DNA of 60,770 bases, the filler included, from Sphacelaria rigidula (lineage: Eukaryota), in the NCBI GenBank assembly GCA_964200075.2. It is 9 parts of 9 records of this genome, joined end to end, with 100 filler letters (N's around TTAATTAATTAA, not from the genome) between each part and the next. Parts side by side here need not be neighbours in the genome. Positions count along the whole stretch, not along the records: positions 27,057 to 33,719 come from CAXNAA020018754.1; positions 33,820 to 40,482 come from CAXNAA020018755.1; 7 more parts are not named here. One strand, written 5' to 3'. The notes below the pieces were generated by a model that saw only the letters and a list, made by a program, of their open reading frames with translations, had not been told where the DNA came from and ran no database searches. The translations under genes were made by a program, and so were the position numbers. The stretch's first letter is position 1. Each line of letters starts with the position of its first letter. Positions 15,040 through 54,684 of the stretch are shown here, piece by piece.

Positions 15040-15077
<38 letters not shown>

Positions 15078-16198: not shown

Positions 16199-16514
16199 CT
16201 GTTCGGTCAGTAATCGTGTAGAGAGAATCGGTGAAACGGGGGCGTGCTCTTTTGTTGCTTGCCTTAGTCACTTGACCACTAACCACGCGTCCCTTTCGAG
16301 ACGGAGCACCGTTCCTACGTACTTCGGATAGATACACCTCCAACATTTAGATTCTCACTACGTTTCTTCCATACATTACACGAAAAAATGCACATGTTCT
16401 ACATGGTACGGGATCACGGCAACGACACTACACACAGGCGCGGCTGGCCGCCCAGCCTTGGCACGTCATCGTCCGCCTCCGGTCACCGCCCTCCCCAACG
16501 CCACACTAACATAC

Positions 16515-16583
16515 CAAGCGCCGACCGAGTCAACACCACTACCGGATCCCCCCCGTCCCCCCCCCGTGGGCGCGCTCGTAGTC
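16515..16583 (-). CDS. Kinesin-7-like gene, putative small tail exon
   Basis: RTTSAPTGGGRGGSGSGVDSVGA between a CAG acceptor and a TG|GTATGT donor. The phase 2/2 boundaries keep the frame. Confidence 0.4.
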
Positions 16584-16750
16584 CTGATCCTGGGTTTTGT
16601 TCTGACTGAATGAAGTTTTCCGGGCGGGGCATGTTTTCTCTTATCCATGTACCTACAGGTGGAAAACCTCAGGTGAAGTCAAAGTAAGCAATTCACAACA
16701 CCTCCGCCACTCCCTCCCTTTCCCAAGGTTCAGAATCCCATCCGCCCCAC

Positions 16751-17577: not shown

Positions 17578-18391
17578 CTGAATGGATAGGGAGGGTTGTG
17601 AGTCGTGGTTTTCAACGTAACAGCAGTACACACCAGGGGGCCAGGGGGGCGGAGCAGGGTGGTTAGACCTTCGAGTGGGTTCGTGATGCTTGTTTGGCTA
17701 TATCGTATCTAAAATTTAAAAAGGTAATATTTGGATATTTTGTTCATACCTATATATATATATATATATGTATATCCACGAATAAATTTTGAAGAAAATA
17801 CTGTATGTCGAGTATCATATCTCTCAAAATCTTGAATCAATGAAAAGCACCTACACACAACAGAAAGCAGCTCACTACAGTACCAAAACTTGATGGGTGG
17901 ATCGATGGATGGATGTACTCAACGCGCGCATATATTGTCAACAGACAACGCAATCAAGGGTGTGAAAAACATTTGACGCCACAGAGGAGACGCAAGGCGC
18001 GGCGCGGCGCGGCGCCTTCCGATGCGAACAGCGACATCACTGCGCGCTTATTCTCCGCACTTCTCCGCCACACCGGGAAAACCAAAAGGAAGGAAACCGA
18101 GGAAATTGACATCCAAAATTACTACAGCAGGAGGAAAGCAATAGGTCGATGACACACAACGCCAACACCACCACTATCGGTCGTCCAGACAAGAACACCG
18201 TAGACATTCCACTCATCGGTCTCACGTATGACCTCTCCTCTCTCCCCTGTTTCATCTCCTTTATTCATCATTTCAATACAGTACTCATCTCGTTTTGGCT
18301 TGTCACGTTACGTCAGAGTCAGACAGTGCAACCGCCCCGGAAAATCAAGAAGGCTACCGTCCGTCCGCTTGCCCAACCAACGTCATCCCAC

Positions 18392-18454
18392 CTTTGCTCT
18401 CGCCAGCTGCTCCTTAAGTTCGGCGATCTCCTCCAGATACTTCTTCAGGAGAGT
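18392..18454 (-). CDS. Kinesin-7-like gene, neck coiled-coil exon
   Basis: 63-bp exon TLLKKYLEEIAELKEQLARAK with CAG and GTGGGA splice sites. It resembles the kinesin-7 neck motif (LIKKY..EI..LK.QL). Confidence 0.85.
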
Positions 18455-19406
18455 CTGTCAACCCCATTGGCATGCGCAGCAGCGGCGCAATTTTGACCGC
18501 CCAAGAACACAGCGTACGTCCACCCGCGCGCGCGCACACACACAAACAGACATACACAGGCGGTAGGGCGACAGAGAACATGCAGGACTGTGATGCGGAG
18601 GGAGAGGGGAAGGCTCATGCACATAGCTATTACTAGCAGACGGGATGGTCAGCCGGCGCAAGATGTTGCAGAAGTGAAGATGAGTGTGCGCTTTTACTGT
18701 GGTGCCCGCAGCGAAAAAAGAAGAAGAGACCGCGCTTACAAAGTGTACCAATTCCTTCATTCCTTCATTCCTTCCTCATACATACATACACGTACATAAA
18801 TGCGTATCATATACTCAACAGAACCAAACAAACTGAACACGCCAACATCATTCTATCTCTCTTCTTGTTCCAAAACAAAAAGATGAAGTGAAGATTACGT
18901 ATACCAAAGAAGAACTCGCGTTTTCTCATGATACGCATACGTGTATGATTCACTTCACGCTTGGTGTGATACATTTTCCGTCAACATAAAATACCCATAC
19001 TTCAAACAACCACCCATTCACTCCTAGCTACACCGGCTATCGGTTTCATCGTTAACACGAACATCTTTGCGCGAAAATGACGGGAAAAAAAGAGAGAAGA
19101 ACAACCAACAACAATGCGTTCAACAAAGTGGAGGTTACATATATATATATATATATATTAAACCCGCTGATGATAGCATCAATTTCCACCCTCAACTCCT
19201 CAAGGAGCAGCAACGCCGCCTACACCGATCGACGAGCAAAGCAAACGTGAATTGACAGATGATCTCGACGACATCATTCACCTTTGTCTAGCGATGTACA
19301 TACAGCCAGCCACACCGATGCCACCATCACGGACTGTCGTCGTCGTCGTCGTCGTCGTGATCGAGACTCTCGAGCTTGAAAAATGATCGCAGAAAGGTCT
19401 CACGAC

Positions 19407-19894
19407 TAGCGATGGATGGTGTATCGCAAATCTCGATGTATCCACCCCCGATATATCCTAGATAATGTATGTCACGTAAAATTGTGGCATATGTGGCATA
19501 TCTCGGTACCATAACGCATTTCGTACCCCACGGTATATCGTGCGTATCTCGCGATGAACAGTGCAATGCATGATATCGCACGATATATCGCGGGATACGC
19601 ACGATACATCCTGCGATACGTGATATACCTTGCGATATATCGCGGGATACGCACAATATATCGTGGGATATCACGTGCCGTGCGATTAATCGTGGGATAC
19701 AAGATAGCATATGTGCACCTCAATGTGTGAAACTAGGTTGGTTCTAGATTCTAGACATTTTGGGGAAGTTTGGAGGCGAAAATCTCGACATCTTATCCGA
19801 TATCGTGCGATTGTCACGCGCCACGATATATATATATTTATCAGATATATCAGATATCGTATCCCGTAGAGTTTTCTTCTCGATACTGTCACTA
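19407..19894. mobile_element. hAT-like non-autonomous element in a kinesin intron
   Basis: Imperfect TIR TAGCGATGG / CTGTCACTA, 8-bp flanks CTCACGAC / CTCATCAC, and dense (CGATAT)-like internal repeats. Confidence 0.5.
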
Positions 19895-19948
19895 CTCATC
19901 ACCCCCACGTTTCACGATAAAAAAGCACGCAAAAAAAAACGGCCGGAC

Positions 19949-20157
19949 CTTTTCGTTGGAAACCTCGTTGATGGACGCATGATTCTTAATGCGTTTGGCG
20001 CGGTTCGCGAACTTGAGCGTGTTGTGCGTCTCCTCCGCGCTCAACTGCGCCGCGGTTACCGTGCAGATGATGGTGATCTGCGCGTTCCCCCCCAGGCTTG
20101 GCTGGAGCAACCGCGTGAGCTTCGAGTCTCGATAGGGTATATACCCCTGCTTGCTCT
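19949..20157 (-). CDS. Kinesin motor-domain C-terminal exon (kinesin-7/CENP-E-like); upstream exons are not on this scaffold
   Basis: [30 protein letters not shown]...[25 protein letters not shown] is the canonical end of a kinesin motor. Polypyrimidine-CAG acceptor and AAG|GT donor. Confidence 0.93.
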
Positions 20158-20389
20158 CTGTCGAAAAGAAACACGGGCAGAAGGGGGGGGGGNNNNNNNN
20201 NNNNNNNNNNNNNNNNNNNNNNNNNNNNNNNNNNNNTTAATTAATTAANNNNNNNNNNNNNNNNNNNNNNNNNNNNNNNNNNNNNNNNNNNNACTAACGT
20301 AGAATAAACAAAAAAAAAACGGCGAGCAGCCTCAGCGACACCAACCACGGGGGGGCGGGGGGGGGGGGGGGGGGGGGATGGCTACGTGT

Positions 20390-23300
20390 CCGAAACGTTT
20401 CTCCGCGCTGCCCCCTGGCGTGGGGTCGTCCCAATAATGACTTGTTTAGTATCCTGTTTTTCAGCACCGAAAAATTCGCAAACAATACCATTAGGCGCGA
20501 TATGGGCAAAACCCAACAGGGTGGGGTCGGGAACGAACAAGCAGCGTGGGCGGCGCTGTATGACAACTATGACGGCAACAGCAAGGAGGCACGGAGGGGG
20601 TTTCATGACAAACTTCACACTATGATGATGCCGTCCGGAGATGATCCGGAAGACTTCCTGTTTGTCATGGACGGCTACCGCGACCACCTAGAGGATGGGG
20701 CAATGTATATACGACGAACGATACGAGGATATTATCCTCCGAGCCCTGCCTGCCAAGTTTATAAGGGTTCGCATTGCTAGCTGCGAGAGGCGCAATTTTA
20801 ATTTGGCGGATCTCCGATATATGGTCAGCACCATGTATACCGACTATCTCTCACGCCCAGATGTCATCAACTTGGTCACAGACCGCGGGGTCGCCATGCA
20901 GGCCAGTGGAAGTGGTGATAGCAAAAGAAACCACATAATAAGATGCTTCCGCTGCGGAAAGCGAAACCACGTTGAACAAAATTGCCCCGCTCGAAACGCG
21001 GCCCAAGCACTGGCAGGAGAAGACAAGGAGAAGGGGACAGAAGGCAAGTGGTGCTCCTTCCACATGGCAATAACCTACAGCGACGAAGAGTGCCGTTTCT
21101 TGCAACGGCGCAGGGGTTGGGTTACCCACCAGTCACCGGTGCAAGGGAACAGCCTCCGGCCATCTCCTTCGATGCTTGAGAAGCGCCCAGAACACAAAAT
21201 CCCCCGGAAGCGGACAACCTTTGGCCGGTCGCTCCAACGAACAAACCCGTTGCTTCGTTTGACAGCAGCGGGCTCTTCGGCGCCTTCGAAGGGGCCGACG
21301 GGGCCGAGGAGGCCAGGGGTCTGGAGTTCCGGCGCAGAGCTCACAACATATTGCGGGAAATCAAGTAGGCACTTTCCCCCACTAGTGCGCGCGTTGGCCA
21401 TAATAGCCGTGGTTCACCACGTTTGGTTGATGTTTGGAAACTCATTATACCACCAAGCCACGTCCAACCTCGACGACAACGCTGAATTATTTGGCGGTAT
21501 CATCGACGCTGATGATGGGCCGGCTCTCGCGGCGGGATCCGCTCTCGACAAGTGAAAGGAGGGCAGCAACAACTCTGTTAGCTCTGTCAGTGCCATGGTG
21601 GACAGAGGCGCGTCGGGACATTACTTTGACGATACCCTTACCCCGGGGCTGCGGCACAAACTGGCGACCCCGCGTAAAATCACCACCGCAGCAGGGCACC
21701 AACTGCAGAAGTTGGTATTGGACTGCTGCGTGGACACATCAAAGACGACGAAGGGGTCAAACGCCTGGTGCAGATTTCGGGTCTGGTCGTGCCTGGTTTG
21801 GGACGGCACCTGTTTTCCGTCAAACAAGCGACACGAAAGAGAGTAGTATCTATTTTCGAGATGAACAACGCAAGACTAGAAACAAACATCTTCATCGTTC
21901 CGCCCGAGGAGCTGGAGAGCAACCTGTACTTCTTTTATCTGGAACTAATCAGCGACAACGACGCGCCTGGACTGGCTATGCAAGCTGCAGACACCGTCAC
22001 GCTGTGGCATCGGCGGATGCGACACTTGAACAGCGATAATTTGAACCTTCTGAAAATCGTCGAAAGCAACGGGGTGGACTTCGGTGAAGCCGTCCCGGAC
22101 TTGGATATTTGTGCTGTTGGGAAAAGTCATCAACTCACTAGCCCACCCGAAGACAGCCAACAACACAGTGAAACGCACCTTCCAACTAGTCATGACAGAT
22201 TTGATGGGACCGATTACGCCGGAGGCGCTCGGAGGCTTCAAGCACGGCTGCAAAATTTATGACGAGTATACCAGATGGGCGGAGATTTACCTCCTAAGAA
22301 CCAAGGACGGCGTACTCCAGGCATTCCAGTCAGTCATTTATACAGTCAATAGTAATTTCTGGCGGCGTTCGGGGGTGAGTTTATTGGCAACGGTTTCAGA
22401 ACGTATCGCCGGCAGACAGGCGTATTCCTAGAGTTTGTAAGCATCAAAACACCACAACAAATCGGCATGTCAGTACCCGTAAGGAGGATGTTTGCAGCCA
22501 TGGTCTGGTGCATGCTTGCCGACAGCGGTTTGCCGACCTTTCTCTGAGGGGCATTAATGTTCACAGCGGCCTACTTTGCGAATGGATCACCTCATTCCGC
22601 GCTCGACATGCAGTCCCCTCATAAGATGCTGAAGGAGACAGAACCGGATTTCCAACACCTTCGAGTTGTCAGAGCCAGGGCTTTGGTTCATATCAAGCGG
22701 CACACTCCAAAACTCGCTCTCAAAGGAGTTGAAGGACGCTCTTAAAGTAGTTGAAGGACGACTAGTTGGGTACAGTAATGACAACAAGGGCTACCGAGTC
22801 TACAACCCGGTCACTCGAGGTATCATGGAGAGCAGGAACGTTTGTCTTCGTCGAGACGCCGTCACGCCTTACACCGACAGGAGAGCCACAACTTCGGATA
22901 CACTCCTTTTCACTTGAGGATGAAGAGTCCAGCAACAGAGAGGGACACAACTACGCCACCGGCGACGACTTCTTCCGTGATCTTCGCGACCACACCTCCG
23001 CACTAGCCCAACCGGCTTATGCCTCTGTCGATCATGTCACTGCCAGCGGGATCTCTAACGATCCACAGGTAACCGAGCTTCTGGAGAGAATCAGCGCTAT
23101 CACCAAGCAGGGCATGCTGCACGACGATGACACACCTCGTGAAGAGACGTCTCCGACAACATCACCGCAGAGCCGTGCGCCGCTAGAACAAACTGCAACT
23201 CCTCCACAGGACGAAGCCGAGCCACCACCACTCTCACCATCAAGTAATTCCTGCCGTGACGCGCGCAGGCATTGCAGCGCACTCCTGTAGGGAACGCAAC

Positions 23301-25050
23301 GGCAATAACGACGGCGCAGCTTCTGCGCACCTTGCAGCGACCGTGGACGACACACTGCCCTCCGAGCTACGACGGCTGCAAATAGACGCCAACGTGCTCC
23401 CACCAGATGTCGCACAGCAGACGTTTGGGGTGGAATCAGTCGTGGAGTATCCCTGGTCTACAGAACGACCAGCTAATCGAGTTGTTCGGTGGAGGAGAAA
23501 ACCGAAAGGATCCCAAACACGTTCAATGAGGCCAAGAGCCTCCCCGAAAAGGAACGGTGGAAGGTGGCTTCAGACGAGAAGTTGGATAACCGAAGAAAGA
23601 ACAAGCTGTATACTCTCGTACTGTCCAACTCCGTTCCAACTGGCCACAGGTTAATCGGGTCTCGATGGGTGTACAAGGAAAAAGCGGATCTCTCGTACAA
23701 GGCCCGAGTCGTCGTGCAGGGTTGGTGACAAGTTCCCGGCATCGACTGCGGCAGCACTTTTGCATCCAGAGCATCAGCATGGTGTTGACTGTAGCGACGG
23801 AGTACGACTTGAAGTGCTGGCAATTAGACCGTGACACCGTCTTCCTGAACGACGAACTCGAGGAAGAACTGTACGTCAAAATGGCGCCCGGATACGAGGA
23901 GTTTGATGCCAATGGAACTCCGATAGTGATGCGGCTCCGCAAAAGCTTTTACGGTTTCCGTCAAAGTCCAAACTGCTGGTGGGGTACGGTCCACACACAC
24001 CTGGCGGAGATTGGGTTCAAGAACCTTAAGCCGAACCCTTATGTGTACACCTACCAGGAGAGCGGCGATGTCTACATCTTGACTTTGTAAGTCGACGATG
24101 TCCTGCTGCTCGGGAAATACTTCAAGGTGCTGGAAAGGATCAAGCAGAAACTAATGGGACGTTTTTCGATGACGGACATGGGAGATGTATCGTTAGTGCT
24201 GGGAATGGATGTTGTTCGTGACCGTAACAGCAAGACAGTCAACATCAGCCAGGATAATTACACCAAGTGTCTCCTGAAACGATACGGGATGGCGAACTGC
24301 AACCCGGCGTGCACTCCTGGGGTGGGATAAGAACTATCCGTGCACCAGCCGGGGGACAAAATTCTAAACGAGGAGGAAAACAGCGCTTCCAGGCCATCAC
24401 AGGCAGTGTGATGTACTTCGCTCAAGTGACCCGCTGCGACTTTGGATATGCCGTGAATCAACTGGCGCGGGCAATGTCCAAAACGTCAAAGGCGCATATG
24501 GTAGCTGCAAAACACTTACTTCGATATTTGGCCGGCGCTATGGACCATGGCATCACCTACAACCAGGGCGGTTTTCAATTGACGACTTTCTCAGATGCAA
24601 AGTGGAGCAACAACCCGGACAACGGAAAATCAACATCACCATATCTTCTCTTTTTCTCGAATGGTCCCATCAGTTTCAAGGTAGGACTACAAGGATTGAA
24701 GGCGCAATCGACCATCGAAGCAGAGCTCGTGGCCGCTGCAGTCACCATGAAGGAGACCATATTTTGCTCGAACATGACGCGGGGGATGGGACGTGGCACA
24801 CGCTTCGACTCCGTTCCCGTCTACATCGACAACACTTCAACTCTCCACATCGCAGGCAACCGAACCTACAGCTCGAGAGTCAAGCACGCAGCTTTAAAGT
24901 ACTTCTTCATTCAGGAATCAGTCAAGGAGGGAAGGATCGACTTTCGTTAAGTTAAGCCCGAAGACCAACTCACCGACACAGGGACCAAGTATCTCAGCAA
25001 ACACAGTCACCGCCATCTTGTCAAGCTGATCAACGCATTTGAAATCCGAG
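20390..25050 (+). mobile_element. Degenerate Ty1/copia LTR retrotransposon gag-pol (many frameshifts and stops)
   Basis: Gag (AAWAALYDNYDG); zinc knuckle CFRCGKRNHVEQNC; protease VDRGASGHY; pre-integrase LWHRRMRH; integrase MTDLMGP; RT GSRWVYK..YKARVVVQG and L*VDD; RNase H FSDA..KSTS/STIEAE/IDN/KH. Domain order PR-INT-RT-RH. Confidence 0.95.
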
Positions 25051-25182
25051 TTCAGTCTGGCTGTGGGACACGTTCTTATTTTGTCCTTAAGTGTCGGGAC
25101 GGTTGTACTGAGCTGGGTAGTTGGAACTAGTATGTATTTGCATTGAGGGGTAGTGTGAGGGAGTAAGACTTGTACTTGCGTT

Positions 25183-25428
25183 GAGGGGGAGACTTACAAA
25201 ATGAGGCTGTGATACTTATTCTCGTCAACGCTTCGTAAGGAATTGATTTTGTATGGAGGCATTGTGTGGATCGTCGGTACTGCTTACGATAGCTTGGTCT
25301 GATATGGAGCGTAGCAGTAGTCGGGTTCTTCTTACTCTTCTCGGTTGACCGTTCAACAAAGTGAGTTGTTCAGACTATCTTGCCCGCAAGCGGCACCTTG
25401 AACACTATCTTCTGTCTACACTCCAACA
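25183..25428 (+). repeat. Polypurine tract and probable 3' LTR of the copia element
   Basis: GAGGGGGAG at 25183-25191 after the RNase H region, then a non-coding segment ending CCAACA. No 5' LTR is available to confirm. Confidence 0.5.
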
Positions 25429-26560
25429 CAGCTTGTCCGGTTGCTTGGCTTAACCGCCATTGCGCTAACTCTAGCGATCACGTCAAAGGGGTCCAAGCGC
25501 GACCTCCAGTGCCCAGAAACTGGTATGCATATGGGAGGACCCCGCCCCCTACCATATGACGCCGTCTTGCGTGGGTCAGCGCCCACTACCTCCGATTTTG
25601 TCGATTTCTGCATTTTCAGTACTCGCGCGATTCTCTTCACGGAGACACCTTCGGTCACCCACCTAATCTCCGACAACATGCGCTCCCGATCTGCCGCCCG
25701 CACCACCACGAGTGCCCCGCCGCCACCGATAACACCTGCAAATTCCACGAGCCACGCAACACAGGTCCCACGGACCAGCACGCAACGCTCCGCGAACACT
25801 CCTCCAGTGTGCACTACGCGCCGCGGACAATCTTCGCCGCGCACTACTACAGCCCCGCCGCCTACAACGGCGCCACCAACATCTACCGCTCCCGAGCATG
25901 GAGCTAACGACGTAGCTCCTTCTCCCGGGGCAGATATTGACGTCGGCACCCCTGCCCCGTAGCCTATTCTCCCGCTGCCTACCCCATCATATTTGGTCGG
26001 CTCGCCAGCGGAAGGTCAACTACGCGAGTTTCTCGCCAGCTACTCTCACCGCGCTTGGGCTCGCGAACAAGACGCGGAACCGCTATGTCGCGCAGTCATC
26101 CGATACTTACAATTCGACTGTCCAGTCCCTTTTCCATCCACCCTTCTGGCCCCGGTTGGCACACTGCCACCACCAGTTATTTCTGACGTATACGAGCTCG
26201 TGCGTAAAGGCACTCTTTTTACTACGGATGAAGGGGTACAACTACTCGTGCGTCGCGCCACGCCCTTGACAGGCGCAACTTCCGTCTCAACTACGGGACG
26301 CCACACACGACTTCTCGATGACGAACCAACGCGCATATATGTCCCATTATTAATACGCCCCTGGGTCATGAAAGGCTGCCACATAGACTTATCATGTCAC
26401 CTTGGCGTCACCCGCACCCTAGTGCTCTTGGATCGCTCCTACTGGTGGGTTGGCATGTAAATTTCTACCCGGTTCTGGATTCGGCGATGCTTCAAATGCC
26501 AAGCCCGAAAGACTTGACGGTAGACAGTACGCGGGCCCGTCATCTCTATGGGATATTCCG
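25429..26560 (+). mobile_element. Ty3/gypsy pol fragment (linker plus integrase HHCC zinc domain)
   Basis: RIYVPLLIRPWVMKGCH...CHLGVTRTLVLLDRSYWWVGM*...IRRCFKCQARK, with an in-frame stop. Confidence 0.85.
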
Positions 26561-27639
26561 TGGCCCGTGGCGAAGGATAGATAGTTTTATCTTTTGTATT
26601 ATTGGAGAGTGCCTAGACTGAGCTGCTGAGGGATCCGATGTTGAGAGTGAGCGCTCATGGCAGCTCGGTAGCTGCCATGAGCGGGATACTGTAGTCACAC
26701 ACACTCGACTACCAGTATCTGCACGTCGGCATCATTCTATCCGCACGTGTGCATGTTCACTCAGTGTACCTGTTCACATGAACACCCCCTCTGAACCGGT
26801 ACATCAGTCGTCGTGGCTTTTTTCTCTCTCAAAACAAAAAAAGTTTCAAGGGGGAAACCCGGCCATCCGGGCAAAAACCCCCTCCCGTACGGAAGAAAAG
26901 TAAGATAGGGCAGGCTGGAGTAAGGTGGGATAAAGAAGTCAAGAAAGTGTGGAAGGNNNNNNNNNNNNNNNNNNNNNNNNNNNNNNNNNNNNNNNNNNNN
27001 TTAATTAATTAANNNNNNNNNNNNNNNNNNNNNNNNNNNNNNNNNNNNNNNNNNNNCCCCCCCCCCCCTTACGGAATGAAAGTTCTTGATTACATTTCCT
27101 CTTTCTGGCCCCCCCCCCCCGCTACGAACCTCACGCTGTAGTTCAAGTGAAGCATCAGATCCGCACCCCCGCAGCCCCCTCTTATACCCCGTACTACCCG
27201 TACCGAGTCTGATCCGAAAATCAATACAAACATTCTATGGCCCTGACGCAAAAGGGAAGTGGACATCGGGAAAAAGGTCCCATGTTTTCAACTTTGGTCT
27301 GATTGCAGTTCGTGAGCCCCCCCCCCCATCTTCCGCAAGTAACGGCGGTGAGGTTGTTCCTCGAATCTCTACATCAGAATGGCCCAGTGCGTGTCAAGAG
27401 GCAGCCTTTGTCTTCTTTTGGAAGTCCTGGAGAGGAACCCGTGTTCTCAACTACCCCTCGGCTACAAGAGATAGCCCTTGTCTTCTCCTTGAAGTCCTGG
27501 AGAGAACACCGTATTCTTCACTATCCCTCGGCTACAGTTTGTCGCCTACCTCGTGCGAGCCGCAACGGGCGTAGCGTAGCCCCCGTTCGACGCAGGTACA
27601 TTGTAAACAACATTTTTCGTTGTACTTTCAATCCCTCCC

Positions 27640-27940
27640 CTTCGTTGGAGCTGGTTCATGGTCTCGGGGGAATTAATACATAACTCCCCAGGTATGTACA
27701 TGTATACCTGACATTTTGGTGTCGCGGATTGGACCAGCACTACCGCACCGTGTCCACTTTCGGCACATTTGCTTTTGCAACTCGCGTCCTCTCGTTTTCA
27801 TTGACAGAAGTCAGTTTTTGGTCAGAAAATAAATCATCTACTACTCGTATGGGGATTCGAGCCCTCAGCCGTCCACCCTGGCCGACTTGACGCGTAGCAC
27901 TTCACCACTCACACTTACACCGTCGGGGCACAGTAGCTCA
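27640..27940 (-). mobile_element. tRNA-derived SINE, family 1 (diverged)
   Basis: Shares the CATTTTGGT.TCGCGGATTGG..CAGCACT body and the tRNA-like head with 507-820 and 56000-56280. Confidence 0.6.
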
Positions 27941-31859: not shown

Positions 31860-34223
31860 ATGCTGATTTCGTTATATTGTCGATTGCTGCTGGTGTGAGA
31901 TCGTATTGTGCTTGATGCGTTTTGCTTTGTGTGAGTATGATACGACTGAAAATTGTCTTTACTGCACCATTGACATCAGTGAGCCAGATTGAAACTTCTG
32001 AACTTTAGCGATGCCAACGTTCAGGTTTGCGCCGGCTACCACTTCTATTTGTAGAATATGATCTTGCATGGTCGTGTGTCATTTAACGGACGGCCGAAGG
32101 CAGAATAAACACGACTGTCGGTGTCTACCGCCCATCAAGGTCGCTTTGTATCTCGAGTAGTGCGGAGCCTTGAGTGTGCTGTAGAGTATATCACCTCCAG
32201 TACACGCCCAGGTACGTGAGAGGTTGTTTGTTGATGCAGCGGTTTATATGAAACTCGGCCATTGGGTATTATCAGGAGTATGACCATGACTGCTAAATAC
32301 ATGATATGTATGTGCGGAGATGCTGATCACTTCTGGTAACGAAGACAACGTGTGTGAGCAACATCTGTCTTGAAGTCTCCATATAGGAGGCGGGGCTGAC
32401 GTACGGGGGGGGGGGGAGAAGGGGGGAAGGACTGGTTTACAAAGGAAGTCGGTCTTGAGATTTTCCGTCGAACTGCGTGACATACTTAGTGTATCACCTA
32501 TGGTATAGGCTGTGACGAGCGGGGTTGGCATAGGAGGAGCAGGCAGTGGAGAGGGGGAGAGCATTTTTGAGGAGGGGGTTGAGCTTGGAGTTAATGGTCA
32601 CCCTGGTTAATATACCATCTGTTGTGTGCATCGTGGCAGGCGAGGCTGACGTAGCGGAGGCGGAGGCGGGAGGAAAGAGCTTTGCCGGTAGAAGAAGATG
32701 AGCTTGGGATCTCTTGGCCTCCCGGGAAAATCTTACCTATGGTGTGCGTCGTAGCAGGCGGGGTTGATGTACGGGTTGCGGAGGGGAACTGGGGGAGGGG
32801 TTCGCTGGTAGACGACGCCAAGCGCGAGCTATTTTGTTCGTTCTGGGCCCTACACCCCGTATATCAACTGTGGTATGCATTGTGGCAGGTGCGGAGAGTG
32901 GAAGGGCAAGCGCTGGTTTACGGAGGGTGTCGAGCTTGGGATTTGTTTGTCGCCTTGGGCGACGTACTATGTATATTATCCATGGTATGCATTGTAACTT
33001 AGAGAGTTGGCGTGGGTGGACGGGGAAGTGAATGGGGAAGCGCTTGCTTAAGGAGGAAACCAAGCATGAGATTTGTTGTCGCCCAGGGTGCAAGTAGGAG
33101 CGGGAATAGACGAGAGCAGGAAATGTCTTCTGGGCAATGTCAAGGTTGGGATTGGTTGTATGCCTTAGTGCTATTATATTCCATATACTGCCGGTGGTAT
33201 TCCTCGTTGCAGGCGGAACTTTGGCTGAGGGGACGGGAACTGGTTGCTTGTGAAGGGGATACAGCGGGTTTGTGTTCACCTAGCGTGCCATACGCATGTG
33301 AATGGGGGTGGAAGACGGGGACGAAGGCTTGATCGAAGAGGAAGTTGAGCTCGGCATTTGAATTTTCCCCAGGTGCTACACGCGAGGGAGTGGGAGTGGG
33401 AGTGGGAGTGGGAGTGGGAGCGGACGTTGACAAGGGCTTGCTTGCAAAGGAAGGCGAGCTTCACATTTATTTGCTTCTTGGAGGAAGTCGAGCTTGAGGT
33501 GTCGTTCTTCGTGACACGCGTACGTCGACGGGGGGAAGTAAGGGAGGAGGCTTTACCCCAGTTGGGCTACAATCTACCCATGTCTAACACATGATACAGC
33601 TGTTGCTCACCCTGACCCTAACCCCGATCCATGACATACCAAGAACTCTCGGCAGGGAGGGGGGGGGGGGGGGGGGGGGGGCGTTTTTTTTTCTTGTTGT
33701 CTTATGCTTTGAAACACTANNNNNNNNNNNNNNNNNNNNNNNNNNNNNNNNNNNNNNNNNNNNTTAATTAATTAANNNNNNNNNNNNNNNNNNNNNNNNN
33801 NNNNNNNNNNNNNNNNNNNGGGGGAAGATGGCTTCGCTCGGTCGCAAGTGCTTCGCGTCTTCCCTGCAAAAGAGAAATGCCACTTCAAGCCCATTTTTTG
33901 TATGAACCCCATTTTCTAGGATCCACTGTTAAATGGAGATTCCGATGGCGGGATGAAACAAATGCGGGTAGGGATCAAAGGGAAAACGGCAAAACGGGCA
34001 GGAAAAATGGATTAGGGGATAACCACACTCCGGGCACAGAAAGGTAAAATTGTCAGTAGTTCGAAGAGGAAGAGAGAAGCGCTAGTCGAGCACTACCGTA
34101 AACTAGGAACACCAAAAACAACCACGGAGTTTAAAATGGAATTCGAAAAAGAATCAACGCGTGGGCAAAGGTAAGTGTAGAGACGTCAAAACGGGAGGAT
34201 AGGGGCTCGAAAGAATAGCAGAA

Positions 34224-34656
34224 AACAGTGGATTCTCGAACATGGTGTTGAAAAAAATAATGAGGTTCAACTCAAAAGCCGTGCTTTCCCTGATCCAAAT
34301 TCATGACACATGACTTTCATATAGATGACCCCATCCCCCCCGACTTGCCTAAGACTATTTCGGGGGATTTCTAGCCTTCCGTTTCCCCCAAGGGTATGTA
34401 TGTGCGAAAGCACGATTTTCGGCCCAAAAAAAACGTCGTTTTTTCACCCCGAATTCGAGGCAAAAATGTGCTTTCGCACAACATACCCTTTAAGGGGATG
34501 GAAGGCTAGAAACCCCCAGAAATAGTCTTCGGGAGGTCGGGAGAGATGAGGTCGTCCGTATGAACGTCATTTGTCATGAATTTAGGCCAGGGAAAGCACG
34601 GCTTTTGAGGTGAACCTCGTTATTTTTTTCAACACTATTTTCGAGAATCCACTGTT
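34224..34656. mobile_element. Foldback MITE, family FB2, nested in the LINE
   Basis: ~430-bp near-complete palindrome AACAGTGGATTCTCGA...TCGAGAATCCACTGTT. AGAA on the left; AGAA on the right after an extra GTTGTT. Confidence 0.88.
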
Positions 34657-35274
34657 GTTGTTAGAAGAGGGAGTTTACCAGAGATGAAGTAAAGGAGTGC
34701 GTAGCTAAACTCAAGAACAGAAAGGCAGCAGGGGCAGACGAGATAGTGAATTCATTTTTCAAGTACGGGGGAGAGGGAATTATTACCATGATGGTTATGC
34801 TGAATAATTGGATCTGGGGAAACGAGTACACACCCAAGAAGAGGTGGAGATAATAGTAAGAAGGAGTAGTCGTCGACCTTTTAAAAAAATAAAAGGAGAG
34901 AAGGCTGAACCAGGGAATTATGGAGGGATAACGCTACTGAGCACGGTAGTAGGGAAAACATTCCGGAAGATTCTGGACGATAGAGTAGGAGCGATGCTAG
35001 AAAAGGAAGAGGAAATCAGCGAGGGACAAGCAGGAGTAGACCAAACCGTAGTTAGTTGCGTAGACCATGTGTACACACTAGGTAAGATTATTCAGGGTAG
35101 GAAACACACCGCGCTGACAAATAAATGTACTGTTTTTTTCTGGACGTGCAACAACAAGCTTATGACACAGTATTATGAAGAAAGGGGTTGTGGAAAAAGT
35201 TGTGGAAAGCTGGGATCAGAGGAAAGGTATGGAGAATGGTGCAGAAGATGTAGATTTTTTTGTCGCACTCTGAA

Positions 35275-35445
35275 CCCCTCCCCTTCCTCGGGCTGAGTCC
35301 GTGGTTTCAAGGGATCAGCCCATCTCTCCCCCGCTACACGCCTTGCATTTTGGTCTTGCGGATTGGGTCAGCACTCCCACACCGTGTCAACTCACGTCAA
35401 ACAAACTCAGTCGACTGCTTCGGTTACTTCCGTTCTCACGCATAG
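35275..35445 (-). mobile_element. SINE family 1 fragment nested in the LINE RT
   Basis: Matches 56000-56160 and interrupts the RT just before the IDGEIS..QG region. Confidence 0.7.
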
Positions 35446-35739
35446 ACGGCGAAATATCGAGCTATTTTGATATTTTACAAGGAGTTGCACAAGGATGTAC
35501 GTTATCACCCGTATTGTTTAAGGTGTTTATTTATGAGTTGATGAAAGCAATAATAATAGAAGAAGTAGCAAAACAAGGGGTCAACGTGGGTGGAGATATG
35601 GGATCAGGATTGATGTTCGCCGATGATTTTGTGGGGATTTCAGAAATACCAGAAGGAAGAAGGATTGCAGAAACGGATAGACAAGACGCTGGGATACACT
35701 ATAATAGGCCGTGGAGAGTGACAGCGACCTTTCACAAAT

Positions 35740-36039
35740 AACAATGTTTTCGTGAGATTGAGAGTAGAGGATACGATTGAGAGTAAAATGCGGTCAATTA
35801 GTGAATGCATCGTTTCTGTTCCGAAATACCCCTCAACGAGGCCCAATATGCTTTCTGCAGCAGCTTGCCACTGAGGTCCTTGATGCCCCTGGGTAGAATA
35901 TCGACGTATAGCTATACGCACACGCTAGTGATGGAGGTGAAGAAAAGTACAGACGGAGTGAAAAAATGGCTGAGAGCAAGCGAATGATCAAAGTCACTCT
36001 CAATCAGCGTTCTACTCTCAATCTCACGAAAACGTTGTT
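35740..36039. mobile_element. MITE family M2, AAAT target-site duplication, nested in the LINE
   Basis: ~29-bp TIR AACAATGTTTTCGTGAGATTGAGAGTAGA, with AAAT on both flanks. Confidence 0.92.
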
Positions 36040-36146
36040 AAATGCGCGGTACTTGTCTGTAACGAAGATGATAAAAATCCGGTAGAGTTCAAATAATGGA
36101 AGTGGGGAGAAGAGCCATTGTCGATCGTAAACCAGTATACATACCT

Positions 36147-36394
36147 GACACTTTCTACGATAGCCCCCCCAAAACCAGCCCAAAAGCGTCACGAAAAATA
36201 TGGCCATACAGCCCCTGATGTTTGGGTTCAGGCTGCATGAAGCGCCAAACATTGGCAACATTGGCGAGAACAAGCCCAAGCATGGGAATTCCCAGCTTCT
36301 CATTGTGCTCGGTTTTTCCCATTTCGATTTACGTGAAGGTTTTGCCTCCCAAAACCATGTACATTTGGGGGGGGGGGCAATCGTAGGACGTGTC
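36147..36394. mobile_element. MITE family M3 (GAC...GTC ends, C/G-run inside the TIR), nested in the LINE
   Basis: TIR GACAC..T/CCTACGAT.GCCCCCCC with flanks ACCT/ATCT. Removing it plus one flank restores LINE codons TAT ACA TAC CTT GGC (YTYLG). A second copy lies at ~40190-40418. Confidence 0.85.
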
Positions 36395-37566
36395 ATCTTG
36401 GCGTAGAGATTTCAATAAGATATTCATGGGATGCACACATAAAATTTATAAATTGTTAGAAAAGGGTAAGGCACAGACAGGCAGGGTGGACGTGATCCTC
36501 AGAGACCCGCACCTAGACACCAGGATTAAGATATGTACCCTAATGAACGTGATCGTACAAAAGCTGTAATGTGCAGGAGAAGTATGGGAGGAGAACGTGA
36601 AGTTGGTGGAGAAGTTGGAAACAATACAGAAGATGGCAGCAGCTAAGTACTTGAATGCTCGAAAACGACGAGTAATACAGTTTGAAGAAGAGCAGAGTTG
36701 GGAATGTACTCACTTGAAACTAACAACAGAGACCTGAGAAAATTGTGATGGCAATATAGTGTGAAGAACACGCAGGGAAAGAGATTGCCAGCTGTTGATA
36801 AGGCTGTATGGAAGAGAATTGCGAAAGGGCGGGCTGGAATAAGGTGGGATACAGAAGTCAAGAAAGTACGGAAGGAGACGGGAGGAAACCAAGACAAAAT
36901 ACTGTCCATCCATGGGTGAAGGCGCGGGGGACGAGACAAGAGTAGTACAAGACGTGATAAAAATAAGGAGGGAAGGGGCGCTCAGACGCAAAGTAGACGA
37001 GGAAGAACGCGCCTGAAGATATACGGGGGGTTGAGAGAGAGGATAGGGATGAAAGCATATATATATATATATATATATATATGGCCCAATGGACTCCGCG
37101 AAAAATCTGGAACTGCGATTCCGGGTGGGGGACCTGGACTTGCCAGAAAGAATAAAGAGATTTACCAGTAGTGGTAGTCGAGAGGAGAAGGGAGTAGATG
37201 CACAGAATTGCCCCTGAGGTAATGCAATAGAGAACATAATAACTCATATATATTGTGGCAGAAGGAGGAACGGGACGTGTCGGAGGGGGGAAATTTGGAG
37301 AGTAAAACGAAGGTGGCATGAAACCGTTTGATACATTAGACAGTCAGTAGAGAGAAACAACTGTGGCTATAGTAGGAAATAGATAGTGGCCACAGACAGA
37401 CGGCGAAACAGGGCGGGGATAAGATAATAATATGTAAAAAGTTTTTGGTGTAATGTATGGAAGAAACGTAATGAGCCCCTGCATGTTGGAGGTGTCTCTA
37501 TTAGGAATAGGGACGGTGCTCCGTCTCGAGAGGGATGCGTGGTCAATGGTCAAACGACTAAGGTAA

Positions 37567-37900
37567 CACACGCGGCCATTCGGCTACCTCCATAATTCCT
37601 CCAGGTGGGTACTCTTTTCGAGCCCCCAGAGGAATTACACGCCTCCGGAGGGGTGCGCAGCCCTCCAGAGGATATTTAACTTCCTCCAGAGGGATTGAAC
37701 GCCTACTCAGACTTATTCTCGCCTGCTAGAGGGCCGCGCATACCCACAAATTCCTCCGGAGGGGTGCGCGGCCCTCCGGCGGGTCGGTAGAGTTTCGTTC
37801 CCTCCAGAGGGATGGAAGGCCTCCGGAGGCTTGTTTTCCCCCTGGAGGGTCGCGCATCCCTCCGAAGGCATTTTGGGGTCTAGCCAAATGGCCGCGTGTG
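37567..37900. mobile_element. MITE with CAC...GTG ends (CMC/EnSpm-like) inserted in the LINE 3' end
   Basis: 20-bp TIR CACACGCGGCCATT(C/T)GGCTA, internal CCTCC(A/G)GAGG repeats, and AA duplicated at the site. It splits the conserved GACTAAGG.AAGCAACAAATG motif. Confidence 0.85.
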
Positions 37901-38583
37901 AAGCAACAAATGAGTACGCCCCCTCCCCCCACCCCTAGGTGACTGTTCATGTATGGGAATTACGCTATTGCTCAGTTTCATAGGCGGGGGGATTGGTACA
38001 ATAGTACGGTTCATTGTGATTGCAGGCGAAGGCTTACCGGAGAACATAATATATTATGCTCCCGTTACATCTCGTATGTGACCACATAGTATTACATGGT
38101 GAATAACGGGTATGTAAAGTAACTCAACCGATTGATTAGTGAAGCGAGCGAAGCACGGAAAATTATAACCCCCCCTGTGAATCACACTTATGAGAACTCA
38201 ACATACCTTATAGTTCTGTCCGAGAACCTTTTATTGGTTCTATTCATGGGAACGTTCTTGCACCGAGGAAGGTTCCTCGGACGTCCGCTAGATCTTTGGA
38301 GGATGGTCTGTTTTATCTCGGAATATCGGGACAATATCAGACCGAATATGCCCAAGAGTCACAAAACGTTGTACACACCAAACCCAAGGTGATCTACACG
38401 TTGAACTGAACTCTACAGTCTAGGCCAATGTCCGTCGGTACATGGTGCCTTGATCCATGTCCTGTTGTCTGAGAGCTGTATGGATAGATCGCAGATCATC
38501 CCCACCTCATCTCACAACTTCTTCTCTTCACCTCCACTCTGTCTGTCAAGCTCACTCGAGCTCTATCCTGTCCACTCAACGCT

Positions 38584-39289: not shown

Positions 39290-40939
39290 GAGGATAATGA
39301 TTGGAAGAACAACAAGAAGGTGGTTGGCATATTATTCGAAACTTTCGTCATGTCGGAACAATAAAGACATGGAGTAGGAAAAGTATGTTCGTGCACGGTC
39401 GTGGGGAAGGAAAGGTGGATGGGGGAGGGGAGAAGGAGGTCGTACTCATGATCTCGCATGCCGTAGTCATGAGACCACTGACCTCGCATTCCTACAAGGC
39501 TGGAGGAGAGTGGGGGAGATTTTATCCGTTTTTGGTCCGAAGACACGGCTTTTCGCCGGTAGCGCGATAACCACCACGAAACTGAAATAAATTGGAGCCT
39601 GAAGGGGTGTTCAACAGTACGGAAGGACCGGGACTGGTTCGATCAAGGGGAAAAAATCAAAAAGCCAAAACGCGGGGCCGCGTCCTCGTAGGGACCTGCG
39701 ACGACCGGTCAACCCGTGAGTCATTCAAAATGAGATCATAGAAATGAGTTTCCTTTCGGGATGTGTTCCAACTGCTAATATCACTTTATTCCCAAATTTC
39801 AGTAGTCAACGCTCACCACACACCGATAAGTGATGGTGACCAAAAAGCCTGAAAAAAATCGCTTTTCAACCGAAAATTCTCCGTCCGAATGTTGATTACT
39901 GTAGACCTCCCCCGCCTTACGCTTGTAGCCATTCAAATGTTGACTACTGTAGACCTTCCCTGTCTTACTGTAGTATACAGCTAGCTACTACTGCAGTTTT
40001 CCCTGACAACGGGAATGGACAACCCCATGTGAAATCAACGCGAATAGCAACTCACGAAGGCACCGGCAAAAACACAGCGCCTGGTGCATGAAATCACGGT
40101 TTTTCGAAAAAAAATCAAAAGTTGGATTATAAAAAGACGGAAGTCCCCAACTGACCGATATTTTCTTTAGCCATGAGTGACGCCGAGATACCCCCCCCCT
40201 GCCCCCAAAACCAGCGTCACAACTGTCACGAAGAAAATGGTCATACAGCGCGTAATACAGTAGCTGTCTTCACACTGCACGAAGCGCCTCATAGGGGCAA
40301 CATTGGCAAAAACGATCCTAAGCGTGGGAGTTCGCAGCTGTTCGGTGTGCTTGTCTTTTGTCATTGTAATTGACACGTACTTTTTGCCTTCTCAAACCGG
40401 CCATTTAGGGGGGGGGGCGTACTCATGTGTTGCTTGCCTTAGTCGTTTGACCATCGACCACGCATCCCTTTCGAGACGGAGCNNNNNNNNNNNNNNNNNN
40501 NNNNNNNNNNNNNNNNNNNNNNNNNNTTAATTAATTAANNNNNNNNNNNNNNNNNNNNNNNNNNNNNNNNNNNNNNNNNNNNCTCCCCCCCCCTCCCGCG
40601 CGCCAATCTTTGCTCCGTCTCGAAAGGGATGCGTGGTCAATGATCGGACGACTAAGGCAAGCAACAAATGAGGACACCCCCAATGAGTGCCCCCCTGCTG
40701 TATACTTTCCAATGCTCTATCGTCGGGCCTTGTTCATAGCCCCTGCGCATGGTTGACTGGCCCTTGGGCGCACGTTGAAACGCGAACAGTAACACTACGA
40801 CAAGTACCCGGTGCGTTGATCCTAGAGAAGCGGTAGACCGTACCAAGACGATATCGTACTTCCATTTCGCGGCGATTGGGTTGTAGGTTCTACAACATGC
40901 TCTCATTCGTCGACCTTTCGTGTGTAATATGTCGTGCAG

Positions 40940-46440: not shown

Positions 46441-47886
46441 CTCCAGATCATTGAAACGCAGGTGAATTCGGCGTTGTCGTCGTACAGTATGTTTCGTGTG
46501 TGGTGGGTGATGGATACTCTCGAACACATCCATTGTCGGTAACGGCAAGGTTCAATCTCACACCCCCGCACTCCGCACTCCGCACTCCGCACCCGTGCAA
46601 CACCTGTCGAACTTTATAGCACAGTGGCTGACGACTGGTGACAGAGTTTTATGCGTGATAGGAAATGGTGTTCGTGATTACGTGAACAGCTGCTGTTCAA
46701 ATCTTGCACCTATCCCTAGCAAACACAGGGTGTCAAAAGTAGAAAATAAAAACTATACTTCGGAGTGGTAGATAGTAGTGGGAACCTGAACCGTTCTTTT
46801 TCTCATTTCTCCGTCGTCGGCGATTTTCTCAGGCTCTTCCGCTTGTCACGGTCCATCACATTGAGGATTCAAAGATTCCTGTATCCGCTCCACATTCAAT
46901 GAAAACAAAATCATCTGTACTCAACATTGGGTGACTTACGGGCTGGCCGGTCGTCGGGGGTCCTGCAATTTTTCAGCACAGATTCTGACTCTTTGCACTT
47001 TTAGTTCGATCGAGCCCGTCCCGATCGTTGTTGTAAAGAAATGTGTAGTTCTATTTTTTTGAATTCTACCTACGATACTCACTGCACCAGAGCCGAATAA
47101 CTGCGTTTTACGGCCAATAACATCCTCCTTATAATAAATGGGGTATCTGCTCTTATCGCCCGATAGCACTACATAGCACTACTTGGGCACTGTTTCGTTT
47201 GAGATTAAACAGCCAATCATCTATGTTGAGGATGGTGCTTTTGATNNNNNNNNNNNNNNNNNNNNNNNNNNNNNNNNNNNNNNNNNNNNTTAATTAATTA
47301 ANNNNNNNNNNNNNNNNNNNNNNNNNNNNNNNNNNNNNNNNNNNNGATCTCGGAATGATCTCCCGATCTTTAAAAACAAAATCGGCAGAAATCGTTCTGA
47401 GATCGCAACACCCCGATATTATCTCCCCCGATTTGGACCAAGAAATACGTTCCCCGATTTTCCCCCCCACGATGTAAAAAAAATGGGATCGGTGATGGCC
47501 ATTAAAAAAAAAGGTTGATTGATTGCTTCTCTCACATTAGCTGACCGCATCAGTCCAGCCCGTGGGCAGAAGCAGCAAATAAAAACAGAATGATGAAAGA
47601 AAGAAGGGGAAAAAACAGATGAAGACAAAAGCAGCGGTCTCAGAAAGGAGAGAAGAAAGGAAGCAGCGATGGTCTGAAACCCTTGGTATTCGTGACTAGG
47701 ATATCGACGTGTAGATGTAAGCACACGCTTGTGATGTAGGCAAAGAAAAGCACACGCGGAATGAATAATTGGCCAACTTGAAGCGAATGATAAAACCCAC
47801 TCTCAATCAACGCCCTACTCTCAATCTCACGAAACCATTGCTACCTGCCGCTGACACACGATTGATAGATAGAAGTCCCAAGAGGA

Positions 47887-52860: not shown

Positions 52861-54684
52861 CAATCTTTCTATGAGTCATTACGCAACTTTCGTAGGTCGA
52901 GATTTTTTTACTTCAAGGTATTTTCACCGTTTTCGGGGGTCCGACGTTTTCTGGGGAAAGTTGGATTCCGTCGTACCTCCAAAAAGCGAAAAATAACTCG
53001 TTTATCCAAAGCTGCATAATGACCCATAGCACACTTGTGCAAAATTTCAGGGTCTAGCTCCAGGAAACGGCGCGAGTTTCGCGCGTTTGGGCAATGGCGC
53101 GAGCTTGGTTTCAGTAAAAACGTTTTTGGGCGTACTTTTACATCAAGGGGAGAAAAACTGTATGAGGTTCTCGAGTTTCTCCACCAAACTTCATACATAT
53201 GTTCCTTGAACTACCCCAGGGTGCATTATGTTACTTTTCTTTCCGGGGGTCTTCACACTGGGACCCTCGGAAGCCGGTAGAGAAAGGAGACACTTTAAAT
53301 ATCGTAAAAAAATAATGTTTCATGTGGAGCATCAATACCTACGGAACTACCAAGTTTAAGGGCGATCTAAGCTTTTTTACGACAGATATAAGGAAAACCG
53401 TCACGAAGCTCCCTGGGTCGTTTGTGCTCACCACCCGTAGAAATTAGGCGACGCCGAAACCCCACATCGCCCAAACACCACATTTCGGGTATAATCCACC
53501 CCCGTTGTAACTGTTGTCAAATATGTATATTCCGTTAGATCAATGAGTCGATGGCGGTTACTACGATTTGAAGTATGTACAGATTGGGTAAAAATTGGGC
53601 TTGGAATTCGTATTTTCGGTTTCGGAACGATTCGACGGGCGCTGATTGGCCGCGGTACCTTTTCGCCCTTAGCGCCACCACGATGGCCTTGAACAAAAAT
53701 CCGGCTATGTCACCCTCTTCAGCTGTCTATGGCGGTCGATATGTACACGACTAGTGGGTAGGTATTGCGAAAGGTATTCGCTGATGAAACAATTTGGGGT
53801 CAAGAGTGTAAACCAGCTTGTAGATTCCGCCGATTCCTACCGAAGAGCCTCTGATTCGTTGAACTTTCCACTTCACAAAAATCGAAGGTTTGGTTGTGTA
53901 TGGTACAGGTATGTTTTCTAGGGTATGGGATTCCTTACGAAACTTACAAAAATACCGGGTACCGGTATGCAAGTCTTACGAAAATTACAAAACTGTCGGG
54001 TACCGGTTNNNNNNNNNNNNNNNNNNNNNNNNNNNNNNNNNNNNNNNNNNNNTTAATTAATTAANNNNNNNNNNNNNNNNNNNNNNNNNNNNNNNNNNNN
54101 NNNNNNNNTTCGTATTTTCCCTTCAATAGAGAAATGGGACTTCACCCTCATTTTATGTTTCAACCCCAAAAATTAGGATCGGCTGTTAAGCGGTACGTAG
54201 ACTTCCTAGAGATCTTGAAGGATAGAAGCTGGTACAAAGTGTGGGGGAATCGTTGGCCTCAGAAACATGCGTGAAAAAACAGTCGCTGGTGAGGAAGCCG
54301 TTGCTGGGCTGCGGCAATCCTACTATTCTTGGTCAGAACTTGAATCTCAGAAGTTGATGACGGTTCCCACACGACCTATAAGCGGTCTCCTACGCTCATA
54401 CCGTTGCCCAATTCCGAAAAATAGCGGGAATACTAGCGGCCGGGTTCTCTGAAGAACGACGAGCTTCAAAAGGCTGAACTATCCATCATAGTTGGGGTGG
54501 TCGGCGCTCGTATGTATGGATACCCATGATCTGTGCTTTGCTGCAAGTTCCACTCGGTTTTGTGAATTTGTCTTTGGCCTCCACTAGTACGGTTAGTACT
54601 GTATATACGAGTGACTGACTAGTTTCGTCAGTTTAACCTAGACTCGTGTAGTAGATGCCGTGTGAGCGGGTGACTAGTGACGGA

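Follow-up and report, generated by a model that had tools for sequence, protein, structure and literature searches.

A LINE family of Sphacelaria rigidula that ends in a homopolymeric C-tail and probably favours C/G tracts

Overview of the C-tailed family

We analysed a 60,770-base stretch of DNA from the brown alga Sphacelaria rigidula (GenBank assembly GCA_964200075.2), hereafter called the window, in which a family of long interspersed nuclear elements (LINEs), here named family A, ends in a run of C. In the reading that we prefer, and to which we assign a probability of about 0.62, this is a LINE of the RTE-X type that, together with its truncated copies and its passengers, possesses an inherited C-tail of its own and probably has the C/G tract as its favoured target. 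The two components of this reading are not equally firm: that the family is an RTE-X-type LINE with its own (C)n terminus is highly probable, and a real preference for C/G tracts is held with moderate confidence.

The window joins nine short scaffolds, each complete and taken from a fragmented assembly, and orders them by length (6664, 6664, 6664, 6664, 6663, 6663, 6663, 6663 and 6662 bases in order); neighbours in the window are not neighbours in the genome. The scaffolds are separated by eight linkers of the form N44-TTAATTAATTAA-N44 (6665-6764, 13429-13528, 20193-20292, 26957-27056, 33720-33819, 40483-40582, 47246-47345 and 54009-54108).

Conserved 3′ end and C-run tails

The 18-nucleotide (nt) motif at the end of the element, AAGCAACAAATGAGTACG, has nine matches in the window with at most three mismatches (20+, 458+, 10798-, 10957-, 14930-, 16243-, 37901+, 40418- and 40659+). 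Only 0.08 matches are expected, and none of 100 shuffles reaches nine. The motif located just upstream, GGTCAAACGACTAAGG, has eight window matches versus 0.63 expected. In all nine copies a sense-strand C-run of 5-28 directly follows the motif, none has an A-tail, and the sequences beyond the C-run are mutually unrelated. Besides the copy encoding a reverse transcriptase (RT), the window contains eight 5′-truncated copies of 37 to ~150 nt with one common 3′ end.

Copies outside of the window show the same arrangement. Two records of metagenome_contigs and one of genome_contigs contain an exact match to the 22-nt core of the end, and a search of viral_contigs with the end motif gave no matches. 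The three outside copies (L001, L002 and L003) continue upstream into an open reading frame (ORF) and end in GTACG followed by C8, C10 and C13, respectively, and then by three unrelated flanks. Altogether, the C-run starts exactly after GTACG in 12 of 12 family A 3′ ends (nine in the window and three outside), with no A-tail among them.

To these copies we added the Logan contigs of four sequencing runs (X1, X2, X4 and X5), which were aligned to one scaffold (13529-20192). Of the runs listed as containing window sequence, one carries the label 'algae metagenome' and none is recorded as RNA. Beside the tail at 14920, we counted 108 (X1), 122 (X2) and 126 (X4) loose contig ends; their consensus continues on the plus strand into a G-run (sense C) and is then lost, agreement falling to 0.36-0.40. 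The first-pass annotation of this DNA had described a LINE family that ends in poly(C) without an A-tail, and this description held in all nine window copies, in all three outside copies and, for three of the runs, in over 100 contigs per run. The tails appear to be very abundant, since the summed contig depth in X1 is ~0.8-3.2 million in the tail bins versus ~60 over unique DNA; this excess, of roughly four orders of magnitude, should not be read as a copy number.

The position of the C-run bears on whether it is terminal. The C tract could be an internal feature of the 3′ untranslated region (UTR), with conserved sequence and an A-rich tail past it, a case that the first-pass annotation had raised against its own proposal. 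A lone feature of this kind occurs in the window, namely an A6 (10767-10772) after the C28 of the copy at 10798. However, in each of the 12 family A copies the run gives way to sequence unrelated to that of the others, and the consensus over the loose contig ends of three runs vanishes right after the C-run, which leaves very little room for an internal tract.

Assembly or sequencing could also have produced the pattern, if poly-G read tails or collapsed repeats had been glued to repeat ends. A C/G run of at least eight lies within 65 nt of 9 of the 18 scaffold ends, and gaps of ten Ns (N10) adjoin two of the tails. On the other hand, in three unrelated records from public sources the same junction lies within a contig, the run being followed by unique DNA, and record 17 of X4 (413 nt, 0 differences) bridges one window junction, extending from the flank through C5 into 67 nt of the copy at 16243. 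In addition, the repeat library of Ectocarpus, in which related elements are described, was curated independently (PMC12477816). An artefact is accordingly hardly credible. The concern that scaffold breaks over-sample G-runs, also voiced in the first-pass annotation, was justified as regards density: because the assembly breaks at C/G runs, the window over-samples such sites and their density is inflated. The association between motif and C-run is not an artefact of these breaks, since it recurs in the three unrelated records and in the contigs of four runs.

Coding capacity and classification

A search with a 107-amino-acid (aa) RT fragment from the window retrieved P0006, an intact 1360-aa protein of the same family with 59% identity to the fragment. 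The third outside copy (L003/L004), on a 5259-base-pair (bp) contig (G001:C43), likewise has an intact ORF: its sense strand contains a single ORF of at least 80 aa, which is 1359 aa long, ends in ...ASNK and is 88% identical to P0006. Both proteins carry an Exo_endo_phos domain (170-392, E ~1e-11 to 1e-12) followed by an RVT_1 domain (740-989, E ~1e-31), that is, an endonuclease (EN) and then an RT. With EN and RT in one protein and 5′-truncated copies that have a common 3′ end, the family is a non-LTR (long terminal repeat) retrotransposon of the apurinic/apyrimidinic endonuclease (APE) type. The best relatives of the RT among solved structures are L1 ORF2p (E 6.6e-21, PDB) and R2 reverse transcriptases. 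The Atlas returned EN/RT clusters without names, and the best 150 sequence representatives, for the most part short fragments without names, were of no use for placing the clade.

The intact proteins also changed the interpretation of the conserved 3′ end, which, in correction of the first-pass annotation, is not an untranslated tail. When read in frame, the conserved DNA encodes exactly the C-terminus of P0006 (...GAPSRKGCVVNGQMTKASNK). The conserved end therefore corresponds to the last ~20 codons of the ORF, with the stop codon 5 nt before the C-run and GTACG in between, so that the element is essentially devoid of a 3′ UTR except for these five letters. A related C-terminal peptide (...APSSRGRVVNGLTAK) is present in homologues from Ectocarpus. 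The closest named homologues are annotated 'unnamed protein product [Ectocarpus sp. CCAP 1310/34]', with 60% identity and, over 963 aa colinear to the C-terminus, 55% identity.

The contig with the intact 1359-aa ORF belongs to a bacterial genome bin. The LINE on it evidently represents eukaryotic contamination of this bin; when G001 was searched with the 5′ region and the tail, no copy was found besides that on contig C43. Similarly, a close relative, P0003, is publicly named as a reverse transcriptase of a Hyphomicrobiales bacterium. This naming, together with G001:C43, is likely due to algal sequence that contaminated metagenome bins. No C-run occurs in the 1067 bp upstream of the L004 ORF, and the 5′ end of the element is not revealed there either. 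Upstream of the ORF, at 436-520 of L004 in sense orientation, we noted by eye a fragment in the opposite orientation that resembles the 3′ module of another family and lies by a G-rich stretch.

Family B, passengers and head-to-tail stacks

Related non-coding families agree with the LINE in their last 35-75 nt and likewise end in (C)n. In one of them, family B, the module from GCTCCGTCT through a small GGTC-NNNN-GACT hairpin is common with family A, while the sequence downstream differs and contains an in-frame stop. Family B and other variants are also C-tailed, with runs of C6, C10, C21 and C37, and the sizes of the non-coding partners range from ~85 to more than 500 nt.

Many of these units are arranged in stacks, of which four were found in the window, each head to tail and co-oriented. 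Scaffold 1 has a family A tail, a family B copy and another family A tail in this order, all on the plus strand. In the first (1-70), the scaffold start truncates a tail fragment (1-37), and the C-rich tail behind it (38-70) has decayed. Directly after this tail starts the family B relative (71-398), which comprises 71-370 and a tail of C6 G C21 (371-398). The third member (411-512) is a tail unit at 411-475 with a decayed C-rich tail at 474-512, and it has the C21 located 12 nt upstream. On scaffold 2, two short units follow each other head to tail on the minus strand (10773-11039), with tails of C28 (10773-10800) and a C-rich tract (10891-10956) and with an N10 gap (10881-10890). The overlap of these units, at 10798 and 10957, with family A is limited to the last ~35 nt.

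Two stacks occur on scaffold 3. On its plus strand, a diverged tail variant (13529-13589) followed by C10, ending at 13599, proved to be the short copy that had been suspected at ~13560. It precedes a family B tail fragment, which extends to 13696 and is followed by C6, and a family B internal piece (13706-14083); together the latter two span 13615-14083. Separately, on the minus strand, the longest family B copy of the window (15077-15582; with its C37 tail at 15040-15076, 15040-15582) is followed by a family A tail fragment (14920-14973) with C10 (14920-14929), which is cut by an N10 gap.

The remaining short copies stand elsewhere. A 5′-truncated family A copy of ~150 nt with C5 (16238-16400, minus strand) lies in sense orientation within a GT-AG intron that belongs to an expressed gene. 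The unit at 40408-40482 (minus strand), a family A tail with C10, is truncated at the scaffold end. Another region (40585-40695, plus strand) opens with a C9-rich tract and, after 14 nt, continues with a family A tail unit (40612-40676); behind this unit stand C5, a repeat of the element end that is 8 nt long, and C6. The tail of this last copy (40677-40695), in which the 8-nt repeat at 40682-40689 separates C5 from C6, looks like an abortive second event or slippage. The minus strand also carries a family B tail (39400-39505), which ends in ATGAGTACG with a decayed C/T-rich tract (39400-39440) behind it.

Probable target preference

The case for a target preference rests on what precedes the copies. 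Out of ten visible 5′ junctions, eight have a C-run of at least five within 30 nt upstream, compared with 3.8% of random 30-mers (nominal binomial P 2e-10). C-runs occur on both sides of 8 of 10 short copies, and the upstream runs are mostly tails of other copies. Among the copies with the end motif, those at 458, 40659, 10798 and 14930 lie between two C-runs, as the first-pass annotation had noticed for some of them. Joints of the same kind are found in the sequencing runs: the 5′ end of family B is joined to the C-run end of family A in 10, 9 and 7 contigs (X1, X2 and X4, respectively), with differing letters between the two sides, and joints of one tail after another (a 53-nt jump back) in 5, 1 and 2 contigs.

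The earlier proposal that the family targets G/C tracts was only partly borne out. It is favoured by the 5′ junctions, by the co-orientation within stacks and by the 'C-rich' target-site duplications (TSDs) given for the Ectocarpus elements (PMC12477816), and it is weakened by the fact that neither an empty site nor a resolved TSD was recovered and that template jumping would give the same stacks. Accordingly, the family might have an own tail and no target preference, the stacks resulting from template jumping of the RT or from decayed copies piling up in repeat-rich DNA. Such an origin fits stacks that mix families and very short units, for instance the 8-nt repeat at 40682-40689, as well as the tail-after-tail joints that are common in the contigs and the two 5′ junctions, at 11039 and 16400, without an upstream C-run. 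It is less easily reconciled with the TSDs recorded as C-rich by the Ectocarpus curators, which are a property of the target (PMC12477816), and with tail purity, which varies within one stack (decayed at 38-70 and 474-512, pure C21 at 378-398) and weakly suggests different ages. We consider an own tail alone unlikely.

The opposite possibility is a pure target effect, in which the RNA would stop at GTACG and the element would always insert at the border of C/G tracts already in place, whose abundance would have other causes. C/G tracts are indeed frequent in the window, where runs of at least 10 comprise 8 of C and 11 of G, in total 19, versus 2 of A and 5 of T, in total 7. A tail motif is located at most 70 nt upstream of 10 of the 27 C/G runs of at least nine (3% background), and the remaining 17 are without a recognisable one, which also agrees with an independent origin of the tracts. 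However, the run begins exactly after GTACG in each of the 12 family A ends, with an unrelated flank beyond. Furthermore, if tracts were entered at random, every copy should be flanked by C on either side, and the copies with 5′ junctions at 11039 and 16400 have no 5′ C. The Ectocarpus curators, moreover, give (C)n as the 3′ terminus of the element itself (PMC12477816). A pure target effect is thus improbable. Examples of long C/G homopolymers in the window are located at 6596-6613, 7982-7994, 20357-20377, 27057-27120, 32405-32416 and 33659-33681.

Several observations weigh against the reading that combines an own tail with a favoured target. No empty site and no resolved TSD were found, as the contig joints link repeat copies and nothing can be delimited beyond the C's; an own tail and a pre-existing target therefore look the same here, and the priming on a pre-existing G-run is what we infer. 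The 5′ junctions were placed by eye and are not independent of each other, and 2 of the 10 are those at 11039 and 16400 that lack the upstream run. The 17 of 27 C/G runs with no recognisable tail upstream imply that not every C/G run can be credited to these families. In X5, which behaves as RNA because its contigs splice 16195 to 16751 (record 25) and 17576 to 19949 and which is the one such run, the contigs show nothing but read-through from the tails into the flanks. The hairpin at the common end is weak, with fold z-scores from +0.65 to -2.23, and it has no covariation support because the stem never varies. Finally, the assignment to the brown-algal RTE-X group, which we regard as the probable one, draws on the Ectocarpus table, on common features and on homology to Ectocarpus proteins, and not on an RT tree that includes reference elements.

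Proposed mechanism

Under the preferred reading, which combines an own tail with a favoured target, the elements would be mobilised through target-primed reverse transcription of the 'stringent' type. The protein would recognise the last ~60-75 nt of its RNA, a region that is coding in the LINE and would be mimicked by the passengers. The endonuclease may nick the G-rich strand of a C/G tract, and the freed 3′ end of the G-run could then anneal to the C-run of the RNA and prime the cDNA. Slippage on the homopolymer would yield tails of variable length, such as the C5 to C37 encountered here. Each insertion would leave a new C/G tract, so that older tails would become preferred landing sites and stacks would grow. 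The C-run would thereby be both the inherited tail of the element and, probably, its favoured target.

A stronger version of this scheme, which we put forward tentatively and consider somewhat doubtful, is a self-seeding target system. EN and RT would need a G-run as primer and a C-run as template, and each insertion would plant the next site. In this version, the unusual surplus of long C/G homopolymers in such genomes, the head-to-tail arrays and the assembly breaks would stem mainly from the family and its passengers, and the last ~20 codons would double as an RNA signal, copied by the passengers.

Known relatives and significance

The family belongs to a catalogued kind and not to a new class, because LINEs of the RTE-X group ending in (C)n are listed for Ectocarpus. 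The suspicion of the first-pass annotation that such a family might already be catalogued was therefore well founded. In the corresponding table, RTEX-1_Ec32 is described as 'single EN-RT ORF; (C)n 3′' with a 'C-rich' TSD, and RTEX-2_Ec32 as having '(C)n termini/TSD' (PMC12477816, Supplementary Material 3). Two non-autonomous families are listed with them: RTEX-N1, of ~605 bp, has '60 bp 3′ end 83% RTEX-1/RTEX-2', 'can be present in tandem' and has a 'C-rich' TSD, and RTEX-N2, of 188 bp, also has a 'C-rich' TSD; both contain the 3′ 60-100 bp of the LINE (PMC12477816). The curators' annotation of RTEX reads 'best blastp RTEX-4_NV / RTEX-1_BF' (PMC12477816). The main text, in the portions available, ranks RTE-X and RTEX-N1 as the most abundant families, with the C-tail unmentioned there and 'C-rich' occurring 0 times (PMC12477816). 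Other Ectocarpus families have different termini, (CAA)n in RTE and (CA)n in CRE (PMC12477816). A recently active RTEX-1 was reported in the Saccharina genome (PMC4421812). Our literature search for a poly-C-tailed or G-tract-targeting LINE gave nothing relevant beyond the Ectocarpus supplement.

The Sphacelaria family resembles RTEX-1/2_Ec32 in its single EN-RT ORF, (C)n 3′ end and apparently high copy number, and also in the C-rich flanks, which were recorded as TSDs in Ectocarpus. Likewise, RTEX-N1/N2_Ec32 have their counterparts in the abundant short non-coding partners that carry the LINE 3′ end and occur in tandem (family B, the units at 10798 and 10957, and the variant at 13529). The partners here measure ~85 to >500 nt as against 188 and ~605 bp in Ectocarpus. 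Besides the different host species, the ORF identity to Ectocarpus is limited to ~55-60% (72% over a partial match). This comparison is with the table descriptions of the Ectocarpus RTEX families, to which the matched NCBI proteins may belong.

More generally, simple-repeat tails are known from LINEs with stringent 3′-end recognition: TTG repeats terminate the TS SINE (short interspersed nuclear element) and its RTE LINE, TAA repeats the I element, and TGTAA repeats, with template slippage, UnaL2 (PMC3747384). As in such LINEs, RTE and others, the 3′ UTR of our family is absent or very short, a repeat of variable length takes the place of poly(A), and passengers copy the LINE 3′ end; unlike in them, the repeat unit is a single C and the recognition region is apparently coding. 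Microsatellite-specific LINEs of the APE type include Waldo (ACAY), Mino (AC), Kibi (TC), Koshi (TTC) and Dong (TAA), and a C/G homopolymer target is absent from the passage that describes them (PMC3812793). These elements are similar to ours in being of the APE type and in sitting in a simple repeat that matches their own tail. They differ in having di- to tetranucleotide targets and in belonging to other clades, and targeting by the family described here is likely, not proven.

In mammalian L1, template recognition is relaxed, and the poly(A) tail, made by polyadenylation, anneals to a T-rich nicked target. The logic of tail-primer complementarity, the 5′ truncation and the mobilisation of passengers are alike in both cases; in contrast to L1, our family has a C-tail with no A-tail, and its passengers have a specific common 3′ sequence. 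A homopolymeric C-tail cannot be obtained by ordinary polyadenylation, and for this reason the elements offer a natural test of the way in which LINEs set their 3′ terminus and choose a primer. They represent a C/G counterpart of the A/T logic of L1. Since the basic fact is already on record for Ectocarpus, if only in a supplementary table, the remaining value lies in the mechanism by which the C-tail is templated or primed and not in discovery. Our analysis adds two points: the conserved stretch encodes the C-terminus of the ORF, whose stop precedes the run by 5 nt, and the stacking is now quantified. Because the elements coincide with scaffold breaks, they also have consequences for brown-algal assembly quality and possibly for G-quadruplex-prone tracts.

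The RT-encoding window copy and other features

The RT-encoding copy of the window is badly decayed. By tblastn, residues 571-1360 of P0006 map to 33932-37918 on the plus strand while jumping among all three frames. The body of the LINE (33932-37566, plus strand) corresponds to residues 571 to ~1352 and includes the RT domain and a C-terminal Cys/His motif; its own RVT_1 match (35274-35738, E 2.4e-4) is weak and below the Pfam cut-off. This copy lacks the endonuclease part because a further inserted repeat and the scaffold start (33820) truncate it. The last 18 nt of the LINE (37901-37918, plus strand), as judged by the frame of the P0006 C-terminus ...ASNK, contain the final codons, the stop TGA (37911-37913) and then GTACG, and they are followed by a C-rich tail of C5 T C6 A C4 (37919-37935, plus strand).

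Five nested insertions, none with an assigned strand, interrupt this copy and, together with the frame jumps, indicate that it is old. The first (34224-34656) is palindromic and resembles a miniature inverted-repeat transposable element (MITE); it matches itself in inverted orientation over 445 bp at 81% identity and forms a near-perfect palindrome (433 bp). The second (35251-35439), inside the RT domain, has further copies at 55966-56156 and 27613-27758 (blastn) and coincides with a gap in the P0006 protein map at residues 850-860. A repeat with inverted ends follows at 35737-36042, with further copies at 55183-55486, 7155-7372 and 47697-47843 (blastn). The fourth insertion (~36166-36378), MITE-like with inverted ends that carry C7 and G11, was delimited by blastn and sequence and has a related copy at 40202-40418. 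The last one (37567-37900), also MITE-like with inverted termini, splits the last codons of the LINE, whose intact copies elsewhere are uninterrupted at this point.

Other features of the window were also annotated. The expressed gene mentioned above is spliced and located at 15912-20158 on the minus strand. Its GT-AG intron (16195-16751) holds the LINE fragment, and its Ala/Gly/Pro-rich ORF has no Pfam match. On the same scaffold, contigs of all four runs, the RNA-like X5 included, skip 117 bases at 14305-14423; a deleted variant, a short intron or an effect of repeats might each account for this. When window ORFs were scanned against Pfam in sets of 22 and 96, Copia- and integrase-type domains were the sole matches besides the LINE. 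Copia-type LTR retrotransposon remains lie at 20692-26457 and 57194-59762, with a gag zinc knuckle, gag_pre-integrs, RVT_2, integrase and Retrotran_gag_2.

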